A stretch of DNA of 64,000 nt from Gemmatimonadota bacterium (GTDB lineage: Bacteria; Gemmatimonadota; Gemmatimonadetes; Gemmatimonadales; GWC2-71-9): assembly GCA_039586365.1 (NCBI GenBank), contig JBDHKN010000009.1, positions 10,354 to 74,353 of the forward strand. Reading direction: 5' to 3'. The position numbers and the translations under genes were made by a program. Under the pieces are notes generated by a model. The model was not told where the DNA came from and ran no database searches. It saw only the letters and a program-made list of their open reading frames with translations. The stretch's first letter is position 1; each line of letters begins with the position of its first letter. Positions 3 to 6,041 of the stretch are shown here, in pieces.

Positions 3-416
3 AGCTACGACATGAACGACGATCCGATCCCGTACCAGCGCGAGAAGACAAGCCAGTCGCCGACCATGGTGTTGCGGGAGGACATGCCATTCATCGTGGT
101 GGGGTCGGCAGGCAGCAGCCGGATTCCAGGTTCCATCATGCGAGCCATCGTAAATGTCATCGATCACGGAATGACACTGGGGGAGGCATTGGCCGCGCGG
201 CGCTGGTTCATCTATGAGAACGAACTCCGGATCGAGGTGACAGACCTTGCGGAATCGACTTTGGGTTCGCTCCGAGACTACGGCTACACGCTGCGTACCT
301 ACGACGGATTGGACAGCTACTTCGCCAGCGTCCACGCCGTCATGTTCGACCGCTCAGCCGGAATTCTGCACGGGGCCGCCGACCCGAGGGACTTTGGAGC
401 GGCCGGAGGGCGCTAG
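3..416 (+). CDS. ggt: Gamma-glutamyltransferase family protein, C-terminal fragment (5'-truncated by window edge)
   Basis: Frame open from the window start. Has a TSQSPTMV motif (cf. SSMSPT), GSAGSSRI (cf. GSPGGSRI), NVIDHGM...AL..RR and terminal GAADPRD-G, all typical of the GGT small subunit. Confidence 0.85.
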   Translation, partial: SYDMNDDPIPYQREKTSQSPTMVLREDMPFIVVGSAGSSRIPGSIMRAIVNVIDHGMTLGEALAARRWFIYENELRIEVTDLAESTLGSLRDYGYTLRTYDGLDSYFASVHAVMFDRSAGILHGAADPRDFGAAGGR

Positions 417-801: not shown

Positions 802-1665
802 GTGTTAGAGGACACCGATTCGCGATTTAGTGGGGACCTGGGAGTTCCTGGGGCCCCTTTTCTCCGCAGGCTGCGTCATTTCGCGTGCGGTTCCGGGGTA
901 ACAACTGAAGTTGGTGACACCGGATTGTATCATGCTGTGCGGCGATTCTTTGAGGCGTTCGACGATGAGCGTGAAGACCACCATGTATCTGTCTCGCTGA
1001 TGCCGATACCCGATGGCTATGCAGTGACACAGCCGGGGGAACGGACTGTAGTGTGTGACTCAACTTCAGATGCAATAGCCGCTTATGAGTTTGCCGTTAC
1101 AAACAACCTCCTCAGAGGCTGCGATCACGTTCAGATCCACTCGTCGGGCTCAGTCCTAAACGACCGAGCCGTTCTGGCTTTGGGGGCATCGGGCGCGGGA
1201 AAGTCCAGTCTTGCACTGGCGTGGCTAGCTGCGGGTTACCCCACTCTGGGAGACGACGTCGTGCATCTCGCTGCCGACGGTCGCGCGCTTCCCTTCAAGC
1301 GACTGTTCAAGGTCTCTCCCGAGATGCTGCAACTCGTGGGAATAGATCCGGCCACAACGCCATTCTGGAATGCGGAATGCGAAGAGGCATGGTACGATCC
1401 CGACGACGCGGCGGGTTGGGCAGACACAGCTCAAGTGGAATTGGTAGCGCTGTGTCGCAGGCAGGTCGGCGCCCGGCTGTCCGTTCGACCAGTCGATCGC
1501 ACCGCCGGACTCAATGCTCTCATGCATAGCCTGATGGAGACGTGCCGCTGTGCAGAGAATAGCCTCGATATTCTGGTGGAGGTCGTCAAGCACGCTCGCG
1601 TGGTTGAGGTCACCTTCGAGTCGGCTTTGCCAGCCGCAGCAGCCATCACAGAATACCTGCAATGA
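802..1665 (+). CDS. HPr kinase-related P-loop kinase
   Basis: HSSGSV...AVLALGASGAGKSSL (Walker A) followed by GYPTLGDDVV, the HprK/PEPCK-type DD signature. Stop overlaps the next gene (ATGA). GTG start uncertain. Confidence 0.8.
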   Translation: MLEDTDSRFSGDLGVPGAPFLRRLRHFACGSGVTTEVGDTGLYHAVRRFFEAFDDEREDHHVSVSLMPIPDGYAVTQPGERTVVCDSTSDAIAAYEFAVTNNLLRGCDHVQIHSSGSVLNDRAVLALGASGAGKSSLALAWLAAGYPTLGDDVVHLAADGRALPFKRLFKVSPEMLQLVGIDPATTPFWNAECEEAWYDPDDAAGWADTAQVELVALCRRQVGARLSVRPVDRTAGLNALMHSLMETCRCAENSLDILVEVVKHARVVEVTFESALPAAAAITEYLQ

Positions 1666-2774
1666 CAGTTGAGGTAGCTCGGTCGTTCGCGCAAATCCTC
1701 GCGCGGTCCGCGGCAGAACTCGGGAGCCGGGATCCAGGTGCTGGGAACCGGCTGGCCGCGGGCTTCGGGATCCTGGGGTTCCTTGCTCGCAATACCGGCG
1801 ATGGGCGGGACGAAGCACTGGAGGGCGCCAGACTACTTGCCGGGATTATCGAGTCTACGCTGTTCGAAGCGGCGGTTCAGATCTCGCGCGCGCTGTCGGT
1901 TGGGACGGTACCGCATTTCTTCGTGAAGGGGATCGCCCTGTCCGGTCGAGCGTACCGGTCCGGCGACCGAGAAATGGCTGACATCGACCTGCACGTGATG
2001 CCTAGCCTGTGGTCCAGAGCAGTCAATATCCTGAGCGATCTGGGCTACACATTGCTGCCGCCCGAAGAACAAGACGGACCCGCAGCTCTGCGAGCTGGAG
2101 TAGCGCTGCAAAGAGGCTCAGCGGGTTCGGAGATCACCGACATTGCAGTGGACCTCAGATGGGGCCTGGATCCGGTGAACCGATTGTTGCCACGGCCCGA
2201 TCTGCCCGTCCCGCAGACTGTCTGGAGAGACCTCGATCGGACAGGACCGATACCGGTGCCGTCCGATCACCATCACGCTGCGCTGATCGTTCACCACCTA
2301 GTCCATCACGACATGTTGCACGTTCGCGGCCTACTGGATCTAGCGCTGCTATGGAGTCGACTGTTACCCGAAGGTGGCAGGAAGTTCGAAGACTTGGCGC
2401 GCGAACTCGGGGTGCTGCGGGCTTCACGAATGCTGGGAAAGGTGCTGGTGAAACACTTCGATCTCTCACCGTGCGGACTGGAAGCTCCACCGGACGATGT
2501 GAGAAGTCGCAGGGCCCTGGCACTGCTCGAACCAGTACGTTGGTGCTGCTGGGCCGCGCGCGCCAGTGAGAGCGAGTTTGTGGAGATCACGTGGCTGCGC
2601 GTTCGGAGACGGTTACTGTTTCTCGACAGCTTGCGGTCAGTGCCGGCTCTGGTACAGGACGCGGTGCTTCCGCCCAGGGAGTACCTGCGTTGGCGCTGGC
2701 CGTATTCGAGATCGGCGGCCACAGCCTTGGGCCGGCATCTCAGTCGAGTGATTGCGAAGACTTTCGTGCGCTAG
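1662..2774 (+). CDS. Nucleotidyltransferase family protein (NTP_transf_5-like)
   Basis: FVKGIALSGRAY...REMADIDLHV matches the KG-x-L...Y...R-x-M-x-DIDL signature. Also has a His-rich HHLVHH...LLDL helix. Confidence 0.85.
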   Translation: MTVEVARSFAQILARSAAELGSRDPGAGNRLAAGFGILGFLARNTGDGRDEALEGARLLAGIIESTLFEAAVQISRALSVGTVPHFFVKGIALSGRAYRSGDREMADIDLHVMPSLWSRAVNILSDLGYTLLPPEEQDGPAALRAGVALQRGSAGSEITDIAVDLRWGLDPVNRLLPRPDLPVPQTVWRDLDRTGPIPVPSDHHHAALIVHHLVHHDMLHVRGLLDLALLWSRLLPEGGRKFEDLARELGVLRASRMLGKVLVKHFDLSPCGLEAPPDDVRSRRALALLEPVRWCCWAARASESEFVEITWLRVRRRLLFLDSLRSVPALVQDAVLPPREYLRWRWPYSRSAATALGRHLSRVIAKTFVR

Positions 2775-2825
2775 AGTCGCAGGGCTCGTTCTTGCCCGGC
2801 ATGAAGCGGTTTCCTAGTTTGCGGC

Positions 2826-3113
2826 ATGACCTCATCAACCTCTGACGTGGGTCCCAAGGGCCGTTCTGACGTGGTCTTCCGGCAACTCGATGATGGATGG
2901 GTGTTGTTTGACCCACGCGCGACGAAGCTTCATGCTTTGAACCTGTCCGCGGCGCTCGTGTGGGCGCACTGTGATGGCGGGTACGATGCAGACGGAATTG
3001 CCCAGGCACTCGCTGCATCGTTCGACCCGCCGGTTTCCATGTCCCGGGCCCGACAGGACGTCGACGCAACTCTGAAACGGTTTCGAGCAGCCGGACTCCT
3101 CGAGCCGAAGTGA
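2826..3113 (+). CDS. PqqD-family protein / stand-alone RiPP recognition element (RRE)
   Basis: 95 aa. VVFRQLDDGWVLFD...LHALNLSAALVWAHCDG...IAQALAASF...DVDATLKRFRAAGLL fits the PqqD fold (3 strands + 3 helices). Confidence 0.9.
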   Translation: MTSSTSDVGPKGRSDVVFRQLDDGWVLFDPRATKLHALNLSAALVWAHCDGGYDADGIAQALAASFDPPVSMSRARQDVDATLKRFRAAGLLEPK

Positions 3114-3117
3114 CTTA

Positions 3118-4269
3118 GTGCAGTACTATCGCGATCTCTTGGCCCAGGTGCCGCGGATAGAGGCGTTCCGTGCGGCGATCCGTCGCGTGGTCCGACCGGA
3201 CGACCGTGTACTGGAGGTGGGCACCGGATTGGGTACCTACGCCTTTTTCGCGGCTGACGCGGGCGCCGCGCGCGTGTGGGCGGTGGAAGGGAATGCGGTC
3301 GTGCACGTGGCCGAGACGATCGCGCGATTGAACGGTTATGGCGGGAAGATTGACTTCATGCGAGGCTGGATACCGGAGGTCCAGTTACCCGAGCGTGCCA
3401 CGGTTCTGATTTTTGAGGATTTCCCGGCCCGGCTGCTGGACAGCAGAACCTTCACCTTGCTCAGGAATCTGCATGAGTCATATCTCGAGGCTGGTGCCCG
3501 CGTGGTCCCGGCGAAGGCCCAGTTGTTCTTGGCACCAGTTGGTTTCGCGATGTCCGTTGATCTGCTGGGTGAGGCAGATGACGTAGCGTACGGGATCGAC
3601 TGGAAACCGAGTCGGGAGTATTGGGCGAATACGCCGCACCATACCGCCGTACCCGGACACGCCGTAGCTGGCGATCCGGTGGCTATTGGAGAGATCGACT
3701 TCGGCCTCCACCCGGATGCTGGGGTCTTGGGCGGCGAGGCCAGCTGGATCTGGGACCATGATGTCGTGGTTCATGGCCTGGCCTACTGGTTCGACTTGGA
3801 TCTTGGTGGAGATCAGCACCTGTCCAACGCACCCGGGGCCGAGCCGGCTTCTTGGGGCCAACTCCTGCTGTCCATCGACTCACCCATTACGGTAGCTGCG
3901 GGGGCGGAACTGCGAGCGGCGGTGGCCTGTGACAACTTCCCAGACGGTGCGCCTGGCTGGCTCAGGTGGAGTGCCAAGACTGCCGCGATGAGCGGTGGAG
4001 GCCACGAGTTCGCAGCGAGGCCGGCATCGTTCGCTGACCTCTACAACCAATCACCCGACGCCGTGCCGCGTTTGAGCGCGCAGGGGGAGCTGGAGCTGCA
4101 AGTAATGCGGCTCACAGACGGGAAGCGGACAATATGCCAGATTGCAGAGGAAGTGCGCCGGGTGCAGCCGCGATTGAGAGAGCTCGATGCCCAGCGCCTT
4201 GTGGTGCGCATGTTGGCGGGGAAACTTGAACAGCCTGCGTGGCGTGATGTTGCCGAGGCAGGAGGTTGA
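3118..4269 (+). CDS. PRMT-like SAM-dependent methyltransferase with a C-terminal RRE/winged-helix-like tail
   Basis: N-terminal RIEAFRAAI helix, VLEVGTGLG motif I, AGAARVWAVE post-I, IFEDF..LLD in the double-E loop position, VHGLAYWFDL...LSNAP...SWGQ beta-barrel/THW-loop equivalent, and a C-terminal TDGKRTICQIAEEV helix motif. Confidence 0.8.
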   Translation: MQYYRDLLAQVPRIEAFRAAIRRVVRPDDRVLEVGTGLGTYAFFAADAGAARVWAVEGNAVVHVAETIARLNGYGGKIDFMRGWIPEVQLPERATVLIFEDFPARLLDSRTFTLLRNLHESYLEAGARVVPAKAQLFLAPVGFAMSVDLLGEADDVAYGIDWKPSREYWANTPHHTAVPGHAVAGDPVAIGEIDFGLHPDAGVLGGEASWIWDHDVVVHGLAYWFDLDLGGDQHLSNAPGAEPASWGQLLLSIDSPITVAAGAELRAAVACDNFPDGAPGWLRWSAKTAAMSGGGHEFAARPASFADLYNQSPDAVPRLSAQGELELQVMRLTDGKRTICQIAEEVRRVQPRLRELDAQRLVVRMLAGKLEQPAWRDVAEAGG

Positions 4270-4272
4270 GGA

Positions 4273-4536
4273 ATGTCGCAGGAAGATAGACGAGCCTTTC
4301 TCAAGAAGCTGGCCAAAGGAACAGTTTACGCCGCTCCGGTGGTGCATTCGCTGGCGGCACCGCTCGACCTCGTGGGGCAGGGTAAATCGTCTGAACACAA
4401 GCGCGAACGCGGGAGCCGGGCAGCGACGGCGTCCCCCGGCGGGAGCAGCGTTACTCAGCAGACGGACATCGGTGCTCCGCCGCCGGGGCAGCAACCGCCG
4501 CCGGGGCAGCCTAACCGGCCGCCATTCCAGCGATAG
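4273..4536 (+). CDS. Small peptide, putative RiPP precursor/substrate with twin-Arg-like leader and Pro/Gln-rich tail
   Basis: GGAGG about 7 nt upstream of the ATG (plus GAGGA abutting it), 3 nt after the methyltransferase stop. Sequence MSQEDRRAFLKKLAKGTVYAAPVVHSLAAP... contains a YxxP motif. Confidence 0.7.
   Translation: MSQEDRRAFLKKLAKGTVYAAPVVHSLAAPLDLVGQGKSSEHKRERGSRAATASPGGSSVTQQTDIGAPPPGQQPPPGQPNRPPFQR
4477..4510 (+). repeat. Direct repeat CCGCCGCCGGGGCAGC x2 (18-nt period) encoding PPPGQ x2
   Basis: Copies read directly at 4477-4492 and 4495-4510. Confidence 0.9.
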
Positions 4537-5082: not shown

Positions 5083-5328
5083 ATGGCGTGGAGAGTAATC
5101 GACACAGACGGAGAAGAGTGGCAGGTCCAAGCCGCAGCCGAACGTAGAGCCAACACCAAGCTGTGGCAACTGAGCTTGTCTTTCCGGCCGCGGAGCTCGG
5201 ACCGGGAACCTCGAGCCATCTGGGCCCAGTATCCACTAGAATCTGTCTCGAAATCCAGTCTGTTTCAGGCAGCGGACCGCATTTCGGACGAGGACCTCAG
5301 GGAGATTCTCGTCCAACACATCTCCTGA
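5083..5328 (+). CDS. Small hypothetical protein
   Basis: 81 aa of protein-like composition (MAWRVIDTDGEEWQV...L.F...ISDEDLREIL). First of three co-oriented small ORFs. Confidence 0.75.
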   Translation: MAWRVIDTDGEEWQVQAAAERRANTKLWQLSLSFRPRSSDREPRAIWAQYPLESVSKSSLFQAADRISDEDLREILVQHIS

Positions 5329-5352: not shown

Positions 5353-5607
5353 ATGCCAATCGCCCCTGTGCAGGACCTCCGCCGCATAGCCGAGGCGGTG
5401 GGACAGTTGCGCGGGCGTACAGTTGAGGACGTGCAAGTACGCTCAGATTGCCGTTTCCTGCGGATAGCGTTGGAGGGAGGACAGATCCTCCTGATTTCGG
5501 CATTGATTGATGAATTCGGTAAGCCGCGTCTGGACGTAGATCTACTGCGTGCCCCCGAAGAGTTGGCTCACAGGCAGCTTGAGGTGCCGTTTAGCGTCCA
5601 GGAATAG
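5353..5607 (+). CDS. Small hypothetical protein
   Basis: GGAG RBS upstream. 84 aa of globular beta-rich sequence, co-oriented with its neighbours. Confidence 0.7.
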   Translation: MPIAPVQDLRRIAEAVGQLRGRTVEDVQVRSDCRFLRIALEGGQILLISALIDEFGKPRLDVDLLRAPEELAHRQLEVPFSVQE

Positions 5608-5627: not shown

Positions 5628-6041
5628 ATGACCACCGGGCGAGCGCCCGAGCGACTCAGATTCGTCGATTTCGAGTTCGCGACGGAGGCGAGTGGGCAGT
5701 GTCACTCGCGAGTGGTGCTGGAATGGACGCCGGGAGCCTCGTTCGTGGGTGAAGCGAGGGGGTTGGCGTCCGCCGCCGGGGAGTTGAGATGTGCGGCCGA
5801 AGCCACGGTTGACGCACTTGAGAAGGCTGTGGAGGGGAAAGTGAAGCTGGAGCTACTTGGAGTTAAGGCTGTGAGGGCATTTGATTCAGTCGTCGTTATC
5901 GTTTCCCTGTCTTGCCACAACGGATTCGCGCAGCGCGTCGTGGGTTCCTATCTCTCGGCAGATGAGGTCCCCCGCGGGGCCGCCTTGGCGGTGCTGAATG
6001 CCACGAACCGCCTGCTCGGGAATATCGTCTTCGTCCGATGA
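5628..6041 (+). CDS. Hypothetical protein (duplicated alpha/beta unit ending A.A.L.A.NR)
   Basis: AAGGAG RBS. Stop overlaps the mltD start (ATGA). Two similar units (CAAEATVDALE / GAALAVLNATNR). Confidence 0.75.
   Translation: MTTGRAPERLRFVDFEFATEASGQCHSRVVLEWTPGASFVGEARGLASAAGELRCAAEATVDALEKAVEGKVKLELLGVKAVRAFDSVVVIVSLSCHNGFAQRVVGSYLSADEVPRGAALAVLNATNRLLGNIVFVR

Follow-up and report, generated by a model that had tools for sequence, protein, structure and literature searches.

A five-gene Gemmatimonadota cassette that likely phosphorylates, methylates and exports a ribosomal peptide through a putative twin-arginine leader

A 64,000-nucleotide stretch of a Gemmatimonadota genome (contig JBDHKN010000009.1, positions 10,354 to 74,353; hereafter, the window) carries a cassette of five co-oriented genes for an HprK-like kinase, a nucleotidyltransferase-fold enzyme, a PqqD-type protein, an S-adenosylmethionine (SAM)-dependent methyltransferase with the fold of protein arginine methyltransferases (PRMTs), and a small peptide (Table 1). 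With a probability of about 0.6 for the reading as a whole, this operon encodes a ribosomally synthesized peptide with post-translational modifications (RiPP) that is phosphorylated, further decorated, methylated, and then exported by the twin-arginine translocation (Tat) system. The cassette is a real and conserved, apparently unpublished variant of RiPPs that resemble the linear polyphosphorylated peptides (LPPs). Its two unusual parts are a remodelled PRMT fold and a leader that, judged from its motifs, likely serves both as a twin-arginine export signal and as a YxxP docking site for the RiPP recognition element (RRE). The gene coordinates and junctions of the initial annotation were confirmed by reading the sequence: an ATGA overlap at 1662-1665 is followed by gaps of 51, 4, and 3 nt, and the last open reading frame (ORF), which encodes the 87-aa peptide, is preceded by a GGAGG-type ribosome site.

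Table 1 Features of the cassette (positions refer to the window)
Feature	Position	Strand	Remarks
HprK-like peptide kinase, 287 aa	802..1665	+	GTG start, start codon uncertain
NTP_transf_5 (PF14907) nucleotidyltransferase-fold enzyme, 370 aa	1662..2774	+	
Discrete PqqD/RRE peptide-recognition protein, 95 aa	2826..3113	+	
PRMT-fold SAM-dependent methyltransferase with remodelled active site, 383 aa	3118..4269	+	GTG start
C-terminal helical winged-helix extension of the methyltransferase	4078..4215	+	weakly RRE-like, dispensable
Precursor peptide, 87 aa	4273..4536	+	predicted 35-aa leader and 52-aa core
Twin-arginine motif R6-R7-A-F-L-K	4288..4305	+	
YxxPVV RRE-docking motif (Y19-V24)	4327..4344	+	predicted
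Signal peptidase I site L33-V34-G35↓Q36	4369..4380	+	predicted
Modification patch S39-S40-E-H42-K43	4387..4401	+	predicted

The peptide and the enzymes are retained together. Loci were chosen by alignment of the methyltransferase alone (60 genome loci and, of 175 metagenome loci, the best 80), and the five parts were mapped in them with profiles grown from the window proteins. Gemmatimonadota-type genes are found in 37 of the 60 genome loci, of which 36 are so named and one is binned as Brocadiaceae; the close homologues that carry names belong to Gemmatimonadota. The exact order kinase, nucleotidyltransferase, PqqD, methyltransferase, peptide is kept in 28 of these 37 loci, and all five parts are found in 31. 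The remaining loci either stop at a contig edge (three) or hold PqqD, methyltransferase, and peptide only (three), and in each of the latter genomes an adjacent kinase/nucleotidyltransferase pair lies elsewhere (3/3). Because the split loci keep both enzymes, a methyltransferase that is independent of the kinase was ruled out. The peptide is present in all 33 genome loci that have at least 400 nt downstream of the methyltransferase. Among the other 23 genome loci, PqqD and kinase occur together in one only (Desulfobacter, L071), and in the metagenome loci, where many contigs are short, PqqD is found in 63/80 and the peptide in 39/80. In a sample of 251 genomes of the phylum, profile matches were obtained for the peptide in 8, the kinase in 11, the nucleotidyltransferase in 9, and the methyltransferase in 16 genomes. 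The 8 peptide-bearing genomes hold the kinase in 8/8, the nucleotidyltransferase in 7/8, and the methyltransferase in 7/8; the one without a nucleotidyltransferase match at threshold (G095) has a PF14907 gene elsewhere in the genome, and the one without a methyltransferase match is G133. The other nine methyltransferase matches are more distant, and the four with Asn_synthase neighbors that were fetched are lasso-type clusters. Where the Tat-leader peptide is present, the methyltransferase was always found accompanied by the kinase. These counts come from carrier genomes that are kin rather than independent samples. Compared with the copy at L036, the first 40 codons of the peptide gene show 18 synonymous and 4 non-synonymous differences, and four more distant copies differ mainly at third positions. 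This pattern exceeds chance, and the cassette recurs in dozens of genomes.

The catalytic residues of the kinase and the nucleotidyltransferase are kept. The kinase carries His113, a Walker A motif (Gly128-Lys134-Ser135), and Asp151-Asp152; H113, G128, K134, and D151 are invariant in 59/59 aligned homologues and D152 is found in 53. A kinase profile retrieves HPr kinases from the PDB at E 2e-7. The His-Lys-Asp-Asp motif is that of the kinases of phosphorylated lasso peptides (PMC9266682), such as paeninodin (PadeK/ThcoK), pseudomycoidin (PsmK/PsmN), and the Bsf peptide (BsfK/BsfB1), and its spacing is identical to H148/G163/K169/S170/D186/D187 of BsfK, a kinase that places phosphate on core Ser3 and is sped up by its RRE, BsfB1 (PMC10368454). 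In the nucleotidyltransferase, for which a sequence search found no solved relative, G90, D107, and D109 are invariant (49/49) and D164 is kept in 47/49. Its homologue PsmN, the one characterised case, acts on phosphoserine, and the output is a hexose on phosphoserine (PMC9266682). The PqqD profile matches TbiB1, TfuB1, and chain 9x8z_B, the LppB entry. Residues N39 (73/74) and D78 (61/74) align with N33 and D70 of LppB, which fix the proline and tyrosine of the YxxP motif (PMC13381572). These results support the initial annotation in part: beside the kept catalytic residues of the enzymes, the peptide is conserved next to the cassette and has a YxxPV motif and, directly behind the predicted cut, a conserved serine. 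The peptide is very probably the substrate of the RRE and the kinase.

As annotated, NTP_transf_5 (63.7 bits, cut-off 31.2), PqqD (PF05402; 51.5, cut-off 23.4), and PRMT_C (32.1, cut-off 27) pass their Pfam cut-offs, whereas Hpr_kinase_C reaches only 19.4 bits against 33.3. The proposed relationship to the HPr-rel-A triad holds in part: kinase, nucleotidyltransferase, and PqqD stand side by side and the PqqD protein passes TIGR04353 (40.3 vs 35 bits), but the kinase is far under the TIGR04352 cut-off (25.5 vs 200 bits), and the methyltransferase and Tat-leader peptide are additions to that triad. No TIGR04352 match over cut-off was found in five non-Gemmatimonadota genomes. The precursor matched no Pfam family, and in a protein atlas it fell only near unnamed clusters (0.90-0.91, low recognition). 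At the kinase start, the frame opened by an ATG at 800 closes after two codons, and the kinase of the closest relative, L029, begins with a similar Met-Cys; the start in the window may have shifted to the GTG at 802.

The leader contains an arrangement that the initial annotation had recorded as RRxFLK..YxxP; the motif is present, but that it resembles a twin-arginine motif for export, with a signal-peptidase-type site behind it, had been overlooked. The leader consensus was built from 60 precursors registered on the tyrosine (that of the window and 59 distinct others); three without the regular-expression motif and three with Cys for Tyr were left out, and the expression itself required RR. 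It reads D-R-R-E-F-L-K-K-L-A-K-G-A-A-Y-x-A-P-V-V-x-S-L-A-A-P-x-x-L-x-G/A-Q-G-x-S-S. When a library was searched with the peptide profile, 281 proteins matched at E<=0.001. Of the 150 matches listed, 142 could be registered and eight were dropped, four as long proteins and four for lack of the motif; the profile itself favors the motif columns. Among these 142, the twin arginines are kept in 140 and 139, the phenylalanine in 123, Leu/Ile in 135, and the tyrosine and proline of YxxP in 128 and 142; position Y+16 is A or G in 132, and Y+17 is Q in 95. The best 15-residue hydropathy of the precursor (1.37) equals the mean (1.37, range 0.65-2.35) of the same measure in 54 ORFs of at least 250 aa with twin-arginine N-termini from the same genome. 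The uncharged-run rule of TATFIND is passed by 58/60 precursors. Tat models are the only ones that recur in NCBIfam among 66 peptides (TIGR02811 in 26/66 and TIGR01409 in 19/66, E<=1). At Y+14/+16, the (-3,-1) signal-peptidase pattern is found in 59/60 precursors. The window genome encodes TatC, two signal peptidase I genes (PF10502) on other contigs, and a glutaminyl cyclase. In Bacteroidetes, Gln exposed by signal peptidase I is cyclised to pyroglutamate; the available text concerned does not mention Gemmatimonadota (PMC5837995).

In agreement with the initial annotation, no lasso cyclase, B2 peptidase, radical SAM, or YcaO gene was found among 13 ORFs scanned around the cassette. Likewise, no MsbA-like ABC exporter was found among the window ORFs scanned or the recurring neighbors of the cassette, no dedicated archaeal-type signal peptidase (LppS type) adjoins it, and no peptidase or exporter was seen to recur beside it across 92 loci, representative sequences being judged by eye. 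A leader with a Tat motif and a signal-peptidase-type site would explain the missing peptidase and transporter, and export by Tat with a cut between G35 and Q36 is rather probable. Tat is able to move small unfolded peptides; a literature search for such transport found nothing.

Serine is the most constant residue of an otherwise variable core. It occurs within the first six core residues of 53/59 peptides, and among the listed library matches it falls at Y+18..22 in 112/141 peptides, compared with 24-49 in other five-residue windows. The cores are 30-70 residues long and abound in Gly, Met, Lys, and His; in 52/56 the tail is proline-rich. A single basic residue was considered as a universal methyl acceptor and rejected, as no Lys, His, or Arg is present in the first 12 core residues of 14/59 peptides and in the whole core of two. 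A well-supported methyltransferase clade (L054, L056, L061, L070, L102, L104, L110, L111, L119, and L130) pairs with Met-rich cores without early Lys, His, or Arg, and several of its loci carry a CDY/WxPxxC motif; since the members are kin that share labels, the pairing does not establish co-evolution with the methyltransferase.

A number of observations weigh against the proposed reading. The Tat model matches are weak and under cut-off (best E 0.003; PF10518 matches 4/66 peptides at E<=1), and the window peptide reaches only E 0.16 with a Tat model, the TIGR01409 matches not including it. At Y+9 (54/60) and Y+18 (47/60) there are further fits to the (-3,-1) pattern, so the pattern alone does not fix the cut; a glutamine right after such a fit is found only at the +16 register (43/60) and is missing in 17/60 precursors, and an acidic residue lies near the cut in 39/60 leaders. 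Six of 59 cores have no serine in their first six residues. In the RRE, the position of LppB F74 is occupied by A, T, or V. The kinase occurs without a detected peptide in three fragmented assemblies (G129, G108, and G040). In a family of natural fusions described below, the twin arginines are located about 100 residues into the chain, which is unusual for a Tat signal. At L163, L164, L173, and L071, PqqD-kinase-methyltransferase blocks stand in polysaccharide loci and no precursor was found nearby. Finally, LppN gave no product in its host and deletion of lppN changed nothing (PMC13381572). As the homologue PsmN led to a hexose and LppN gave no product, a nucleoside monophosphate adduct is only one option, by analogy, for the nucleotidyltransferase. 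That a second modification is placed on phosphoserine is somewhat favored.

The methyltransferase has a PRMT fold and an altered active site. Its profile matches PRMT6 at E 1e-41, and the best structural matches of its AlphaFold2 model (mean predicted local distance difference test score, pLDDT, 90.3) are all PRMTs (Z 22-27.5, compared with at most 11.5 for other methyltransferases). As in eukaryotic PRMTs (PRMT6, CARM1, and PRMT1/3), the Rossmann and beta-barrel fold extends over about 300 residues and the SAM-binding motif is present. E100 aligns with the first double-E glutamate of PRMT6, an Asp follows it, the second glutamate is replaced by Ser109, and T-H-W reads A-S-W, so that the first glutamate and the tryptophan are kept, whereas the second glutamate and the histidine are absent. 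The THW-loop His is typical of type I and III PRMTs, and PRMT5 has Ser at that position. An active-site census covered 124 distinct proteins from the loci. Among 103 cassette-type enzymes, the first Glu is kept in 102, the second in 6, and the THW His in none, with Ser there in 59; in contrast, 18 of 21 free-standing bacterial PRMT-like relatives keep the second Glu and 20 keep the His. In a quick tree of 107 of these proteins, the free-standing group stands apart (SH-aLRT support of 100, no bootstrap). Unlike eukaryotic PRMTs, the cassette enzyme is coupled to an RRE and has a C-terminal winged-helix extension. This extension forms helices at 321-366 in the model, is unaligned in several homologues, and aligns weakly with PqqD (hhalign probability 74, E 3e-5).

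The initial annotation had named a eukaryote-like arginine methyltransferase; the fold stood, but half of the arginine-binding motif is lost and the cores mostly lack Arg. An alternative in which export and phosphorylation proceed as proposed and the enzyme acts as an ordinary arginine methyltransferase, on a core Arg or on other proteins, would account for the fold, for R44, R46, and R49 in the window core, and for an Arg somewhere after the cut in 42/56 cores. It is improbable, given the remodelled catalytic motif, an Arg within the first 12 core residues in only 5/59 peptides, and none after the cut in 14/56 cores and in 37/142 library peptides (listed matches). Classic arginine methylation thus appears unlikely from the loss of the second Glu and the THW His and from the rarity of core Arg. 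The methyl acceptor could, tentatively, be the phosphoserine adduct or, also tentatively, a neighboring Lys or His; a Met or the backbone is doubtful, and an Arg of the core or leader is a poor candidate.

The leader arginines are the only near-universal Arg residues of the precursor, and this raises an alternative in which the modified peptide stays in the cytoplasm and RR is the target of the PRMT-fold enzyme or a contact of the RRE. The full PRMT fold with its first Glu would be consistent with such a role, as would the fusion family, in which RR is internal. In genome G101, one ORF (L213:5777-6307, minus strand) after the nucleotidyltransferase and kinase genes combines PqqD, an RR...P...A-x-A leader, and a Cys/Lys/Arg-rich tail; the G101 nucleotidyltransferase is close to the window family and the kinase more distant. 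This PqqD-leader fusion has 711 relatives at E<=1e-15, its leader aligns with that of the cassette (hhalign probability 92.6), and S or T occupies +18 in 61/61 registered rows (61 of 67 registrable). By joining the RRE and this leader, the natural fusion speaks for the preferred reading. A model of the L213 fusion places a strand at 122-126 right after the invariant proline (pLDDT about 67) and was not counted as evidence. The cytoplasmic alternative is unlikely for three reasons. Behind RR stand the complete F-L-K consensus, a stretch free of charges, and the A/G↓Q site. G133 (95% complete) and G101 (97%) have kept the twin arginines, and no methyltransferase of the family was found in either genome. 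The second Glu and the His are lost, although free-standing bacterial PRMT-like proteins largely keep them.

The surroundings of the cassette bear on another alternative, in which the enzymes build or cap a glycan or other envelope polymer, with the peptide as just a carrier or anchor. WbdD provides a precedent, as a kinase/methyltransferase pair that caps O-antigen. The polysaccharide loci mentioned above, with no precursor found, place PqqD-kinase-methyltransferase blocks among genes for Wza, Wzc, Wzy, O-antigen ligase, and glycosyltransferases, the PsmN output is a hexose, and LPP and paeninodin clusters likewise lie in capsule loci (PMC13381572). However, no recurring glycan genes adjoin the window cassette or its Gemmatimonadota relatives, the constant partners are an RRE and a YxxP peptide, and the kinase matches peptide kinases residue for residue. 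There is thus only a slight chance that a glycan is the substrate, and a modified peptide is preferred. Clusters of neighboring ORFs at the 92 loci comprise small Gemmatimonadota genes, lytic transglycosylases, moaC, holB, and ribosomal genes.

The closest known class is the LPPs, encoded by lppA-K-B-S-D-N in Paenibacillus alginolyticus and other Bacillota (Popov et al., Nat Commun 2026, PMC13381572), and the initial view that this combination is unlike any described RiPP class needs correction, because these clusters already combine an RRE, an HprK kinase, and an NTP transferase without a cyclase. LPP clusters also encode a dedicated signal peptidase and an ABC exporter; LppK phosphorylates core Ser3, which is polyphosphorylated in the LPP, and the class is called restricted to Bacillota (PMC13381572). 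The cassette shares with LPPs its discrete RRE, its HprK-like kinase, its NTP transferase, the lack of any macrolactam cyclase, a YxxPxV leader, a variable core with a Ser near its start (Y+18 in LPPs and Y+19 to +21 here), and, as predicted here, leader removal by a signal-peptidase-type enzyme. In contrast, it encodes no SipW-like peptidase (LppS) or MsbA-like ABC exporter and has no HQxIxFET: the LPP leader reads YxxPxVLxHQxIxFETxxS and the present one YxAPVVxSLAAPxxLxGQGxS, so that only YxxP-x-V and a later Ser are common. A twin-arginine motif, an A/G↓Q site, and a PRMT-fold methyltransferase are additional here, and the host belongs to a Gram-negative phylum with no capsule locus around the window. 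The cassette is LPP-like and is not filed as a member, since it fails three defining features (peptidase, exporter, and leader consensus). The main text of the LPP paper contains no mention of a methyltransferase, a Gemmatimonad, or a twin-arginine motif, and in its six text supplements PRMT5_C appears once, as a column head of a domain matrix, and no Gemmatimonad appears (PMC13381572). A survey of marine Gemmatimonadota, in its available text, mentions lasso clusters only (PMC11316326), and PMC12710340 holds nothing relevant in its main text or one text supplement. In a library without subscription papers and bioRxiv supplements, no literature was found on this cassette, on RiPPs with a Tat leader, or on RiPP enzymes of PRMT fold.

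The cassette also resembles phosphorylated lasso peptide systems in its predicted RRE-assisted Ser phosphorylation and its nucleotidyltransferase homologue, and a cut after G35 would place the Tyr at -17, as in BsfA (PMC10368454). It could be the tailoring half of a lasso pathway with its cyclase and B2 peptidase encoded elsewhere. The YxxP leader and the lasso B1 proteins among the best RRE matches are compatible with this, as are related methyltransferases in lasso-type clusters of other Gemmatimonadales (L031, L032, L216, L219, and L220) and, on contigs other than that of the cassette, three hits to Asn_synthase and a single weak one to PF13471 in the 86% complete genome. However, no cyclase or B2 peptidase lies beside the cassette, a lasso leader model matches 0/66 peptides, whereas the L031 and L032 precursors match such models, there is no conserved Thr before the core (Thr(-2)) or Asp/Glu at ring position 7-9, and the cores are long, linear, and proline-tailed. 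A lasso product is therefore very improbable, and a linear modified peptide is retained as the preferred product. In those lasso-type clusters (L031:3319-9739, L032:6564-12683, L216, L219, and L220), the related PRMT-fold methyltransferase stands beside Asn_synthase and kinase genes, and several of the precursors end in Lys/Arg then Thr/Ser, a possible methyl and phosphate pair. A parallel for export is offered by bufferins, RiPP precursors with a Sec signal in which Sec and signal peptidase replace dedicated genes (PMC11626156). Housekeeping export and signal peptidase would similarly replace a transporter and protease here and yield a periplasmic product. Tat rather than Sec would be used here, the enzymes are unrelated, and the bufferin signal peptide is dispensable for modification, whereas the leader of the cassette holds the RRE motif (PMC11626156).

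Several other arrangements and neighbors were observed. Tandem precursor genes with different cores occur at L056:9779-10312 and L120:2057-2521, and the 446-aa library protein P0224 has a methyltransferase that runs into a precursor, by natural fusion or frameshift. The L055 methyltransferase gene (L055:9921-12524) is split by about 2.6 kb of other DNA, and L118, a copy from a metagenome, is uninterrupted. In G133 (L194:6768-7169 on the minus strand, L209, and L210) and in G189 (L191, L192, and L199), the parts are dispersed among separate loci, and G189 has two precursors and two kinases. A second gene order (peptide, nucleotidyltransferase, PqqD, short kinase, methyltransferase) is found at L145, L146, L158, L166, L170, and L175, where short Cys-containing cores follow an A-R-A site and two loci adjoin a sulfotransferase and a GNAT gene. 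In the window, 12-416 is the C-terminal part of a gamma-glutamyltransferase-family gene that starts upstream. Downstream of the cassette, small conserved genes at 5083-5328, 5353-5607, and 5628-6041 precede an SLT-LysM gene and match no family over cut-off, the third being weakly LeuA_dimer-like; they were rejected as cassette members because they adjoin it in only about 35/92 loci and travel with SLT, moaC, and holB. Elsewhere in the window genome, another PqqD-domain gene and a weak hit to PF13471 (G000:C91:6625-6807 and C55:19375-19629) are unlinked to the cassette, each part of which is single-copy in this genome by profile search. The GC content is flat (59-64%), promoter and terminator scans gave chance-level results only, and no plasmid match was found.

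The following scheme proposes all chemical steps and export from the observed genes, motifs, co-retention, and housekeeping machinery. PqqD would dock on the YxxPV motif (Y19-V24), and the kinase would phosphorylate or polyphosphorylate Ser39/Ser40. The PF14907 enzyme may then extend the phosphate with a nucleotide or hexose, and the PRMT-fold enzyme may methylate the adduct or the neighboring H42/K43. TatC would read R6-R7 and the peptide would leave via Tat, with signal peptidase I predicted to cut after G35 and Q36 to cyclise to pyroglutamate; housekeeping Tat and signal peptidase I would thus stand in for a dedicated peptidase and exporter. The expected product is a 52-residue, probably pyroglutamate-blocked, proline-tailed peptide of the periplasm or the exterior. 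A bolder version, which we consider speculative and rather unlikely, is a three-enzyme relay that caps serine with phosphate, a nucleotide or sugar, and a methyl group from the repurposed PRMT fold, with the RRE retaining the peptide until it is modified and Tat exporting it, in a multi-phylum class that includes the fusion family and the other gene orders. It is hinted at by the constant company of methyltransferase and kinase, the constancy of Ser, and the two cores without Lys, His, or Arg.

For a cassette of kinase, nucleotidyltransferase, and PqqD, these results name a concrete predicted substrate, cut site, and target Ser. The compact, self-contained system of five genes is suited to learning the function of PF14907, a question left by LppN and PsmN. 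A leader that is both a Tat signal and an RRE site would, if true, be a new solution to RiPP export. Bulky modifications are poorly handled by Sec (PMC11626156), and export through a Tat/RRE leader would suit them. The rebuilt PRMT-fold active site may perform a methylation not yet seen on ribosomal peptides, and the capped-serine relay, if true, would be a post-translational modification not yet described. For the organism, a role in the cell envelope appears most likely, though the indication is weak, either as surface or matrix decoration or as metal buffering by Met/His-rich cores. With this cassette, a phylum that has hardly been cultured gains a natural-product family.

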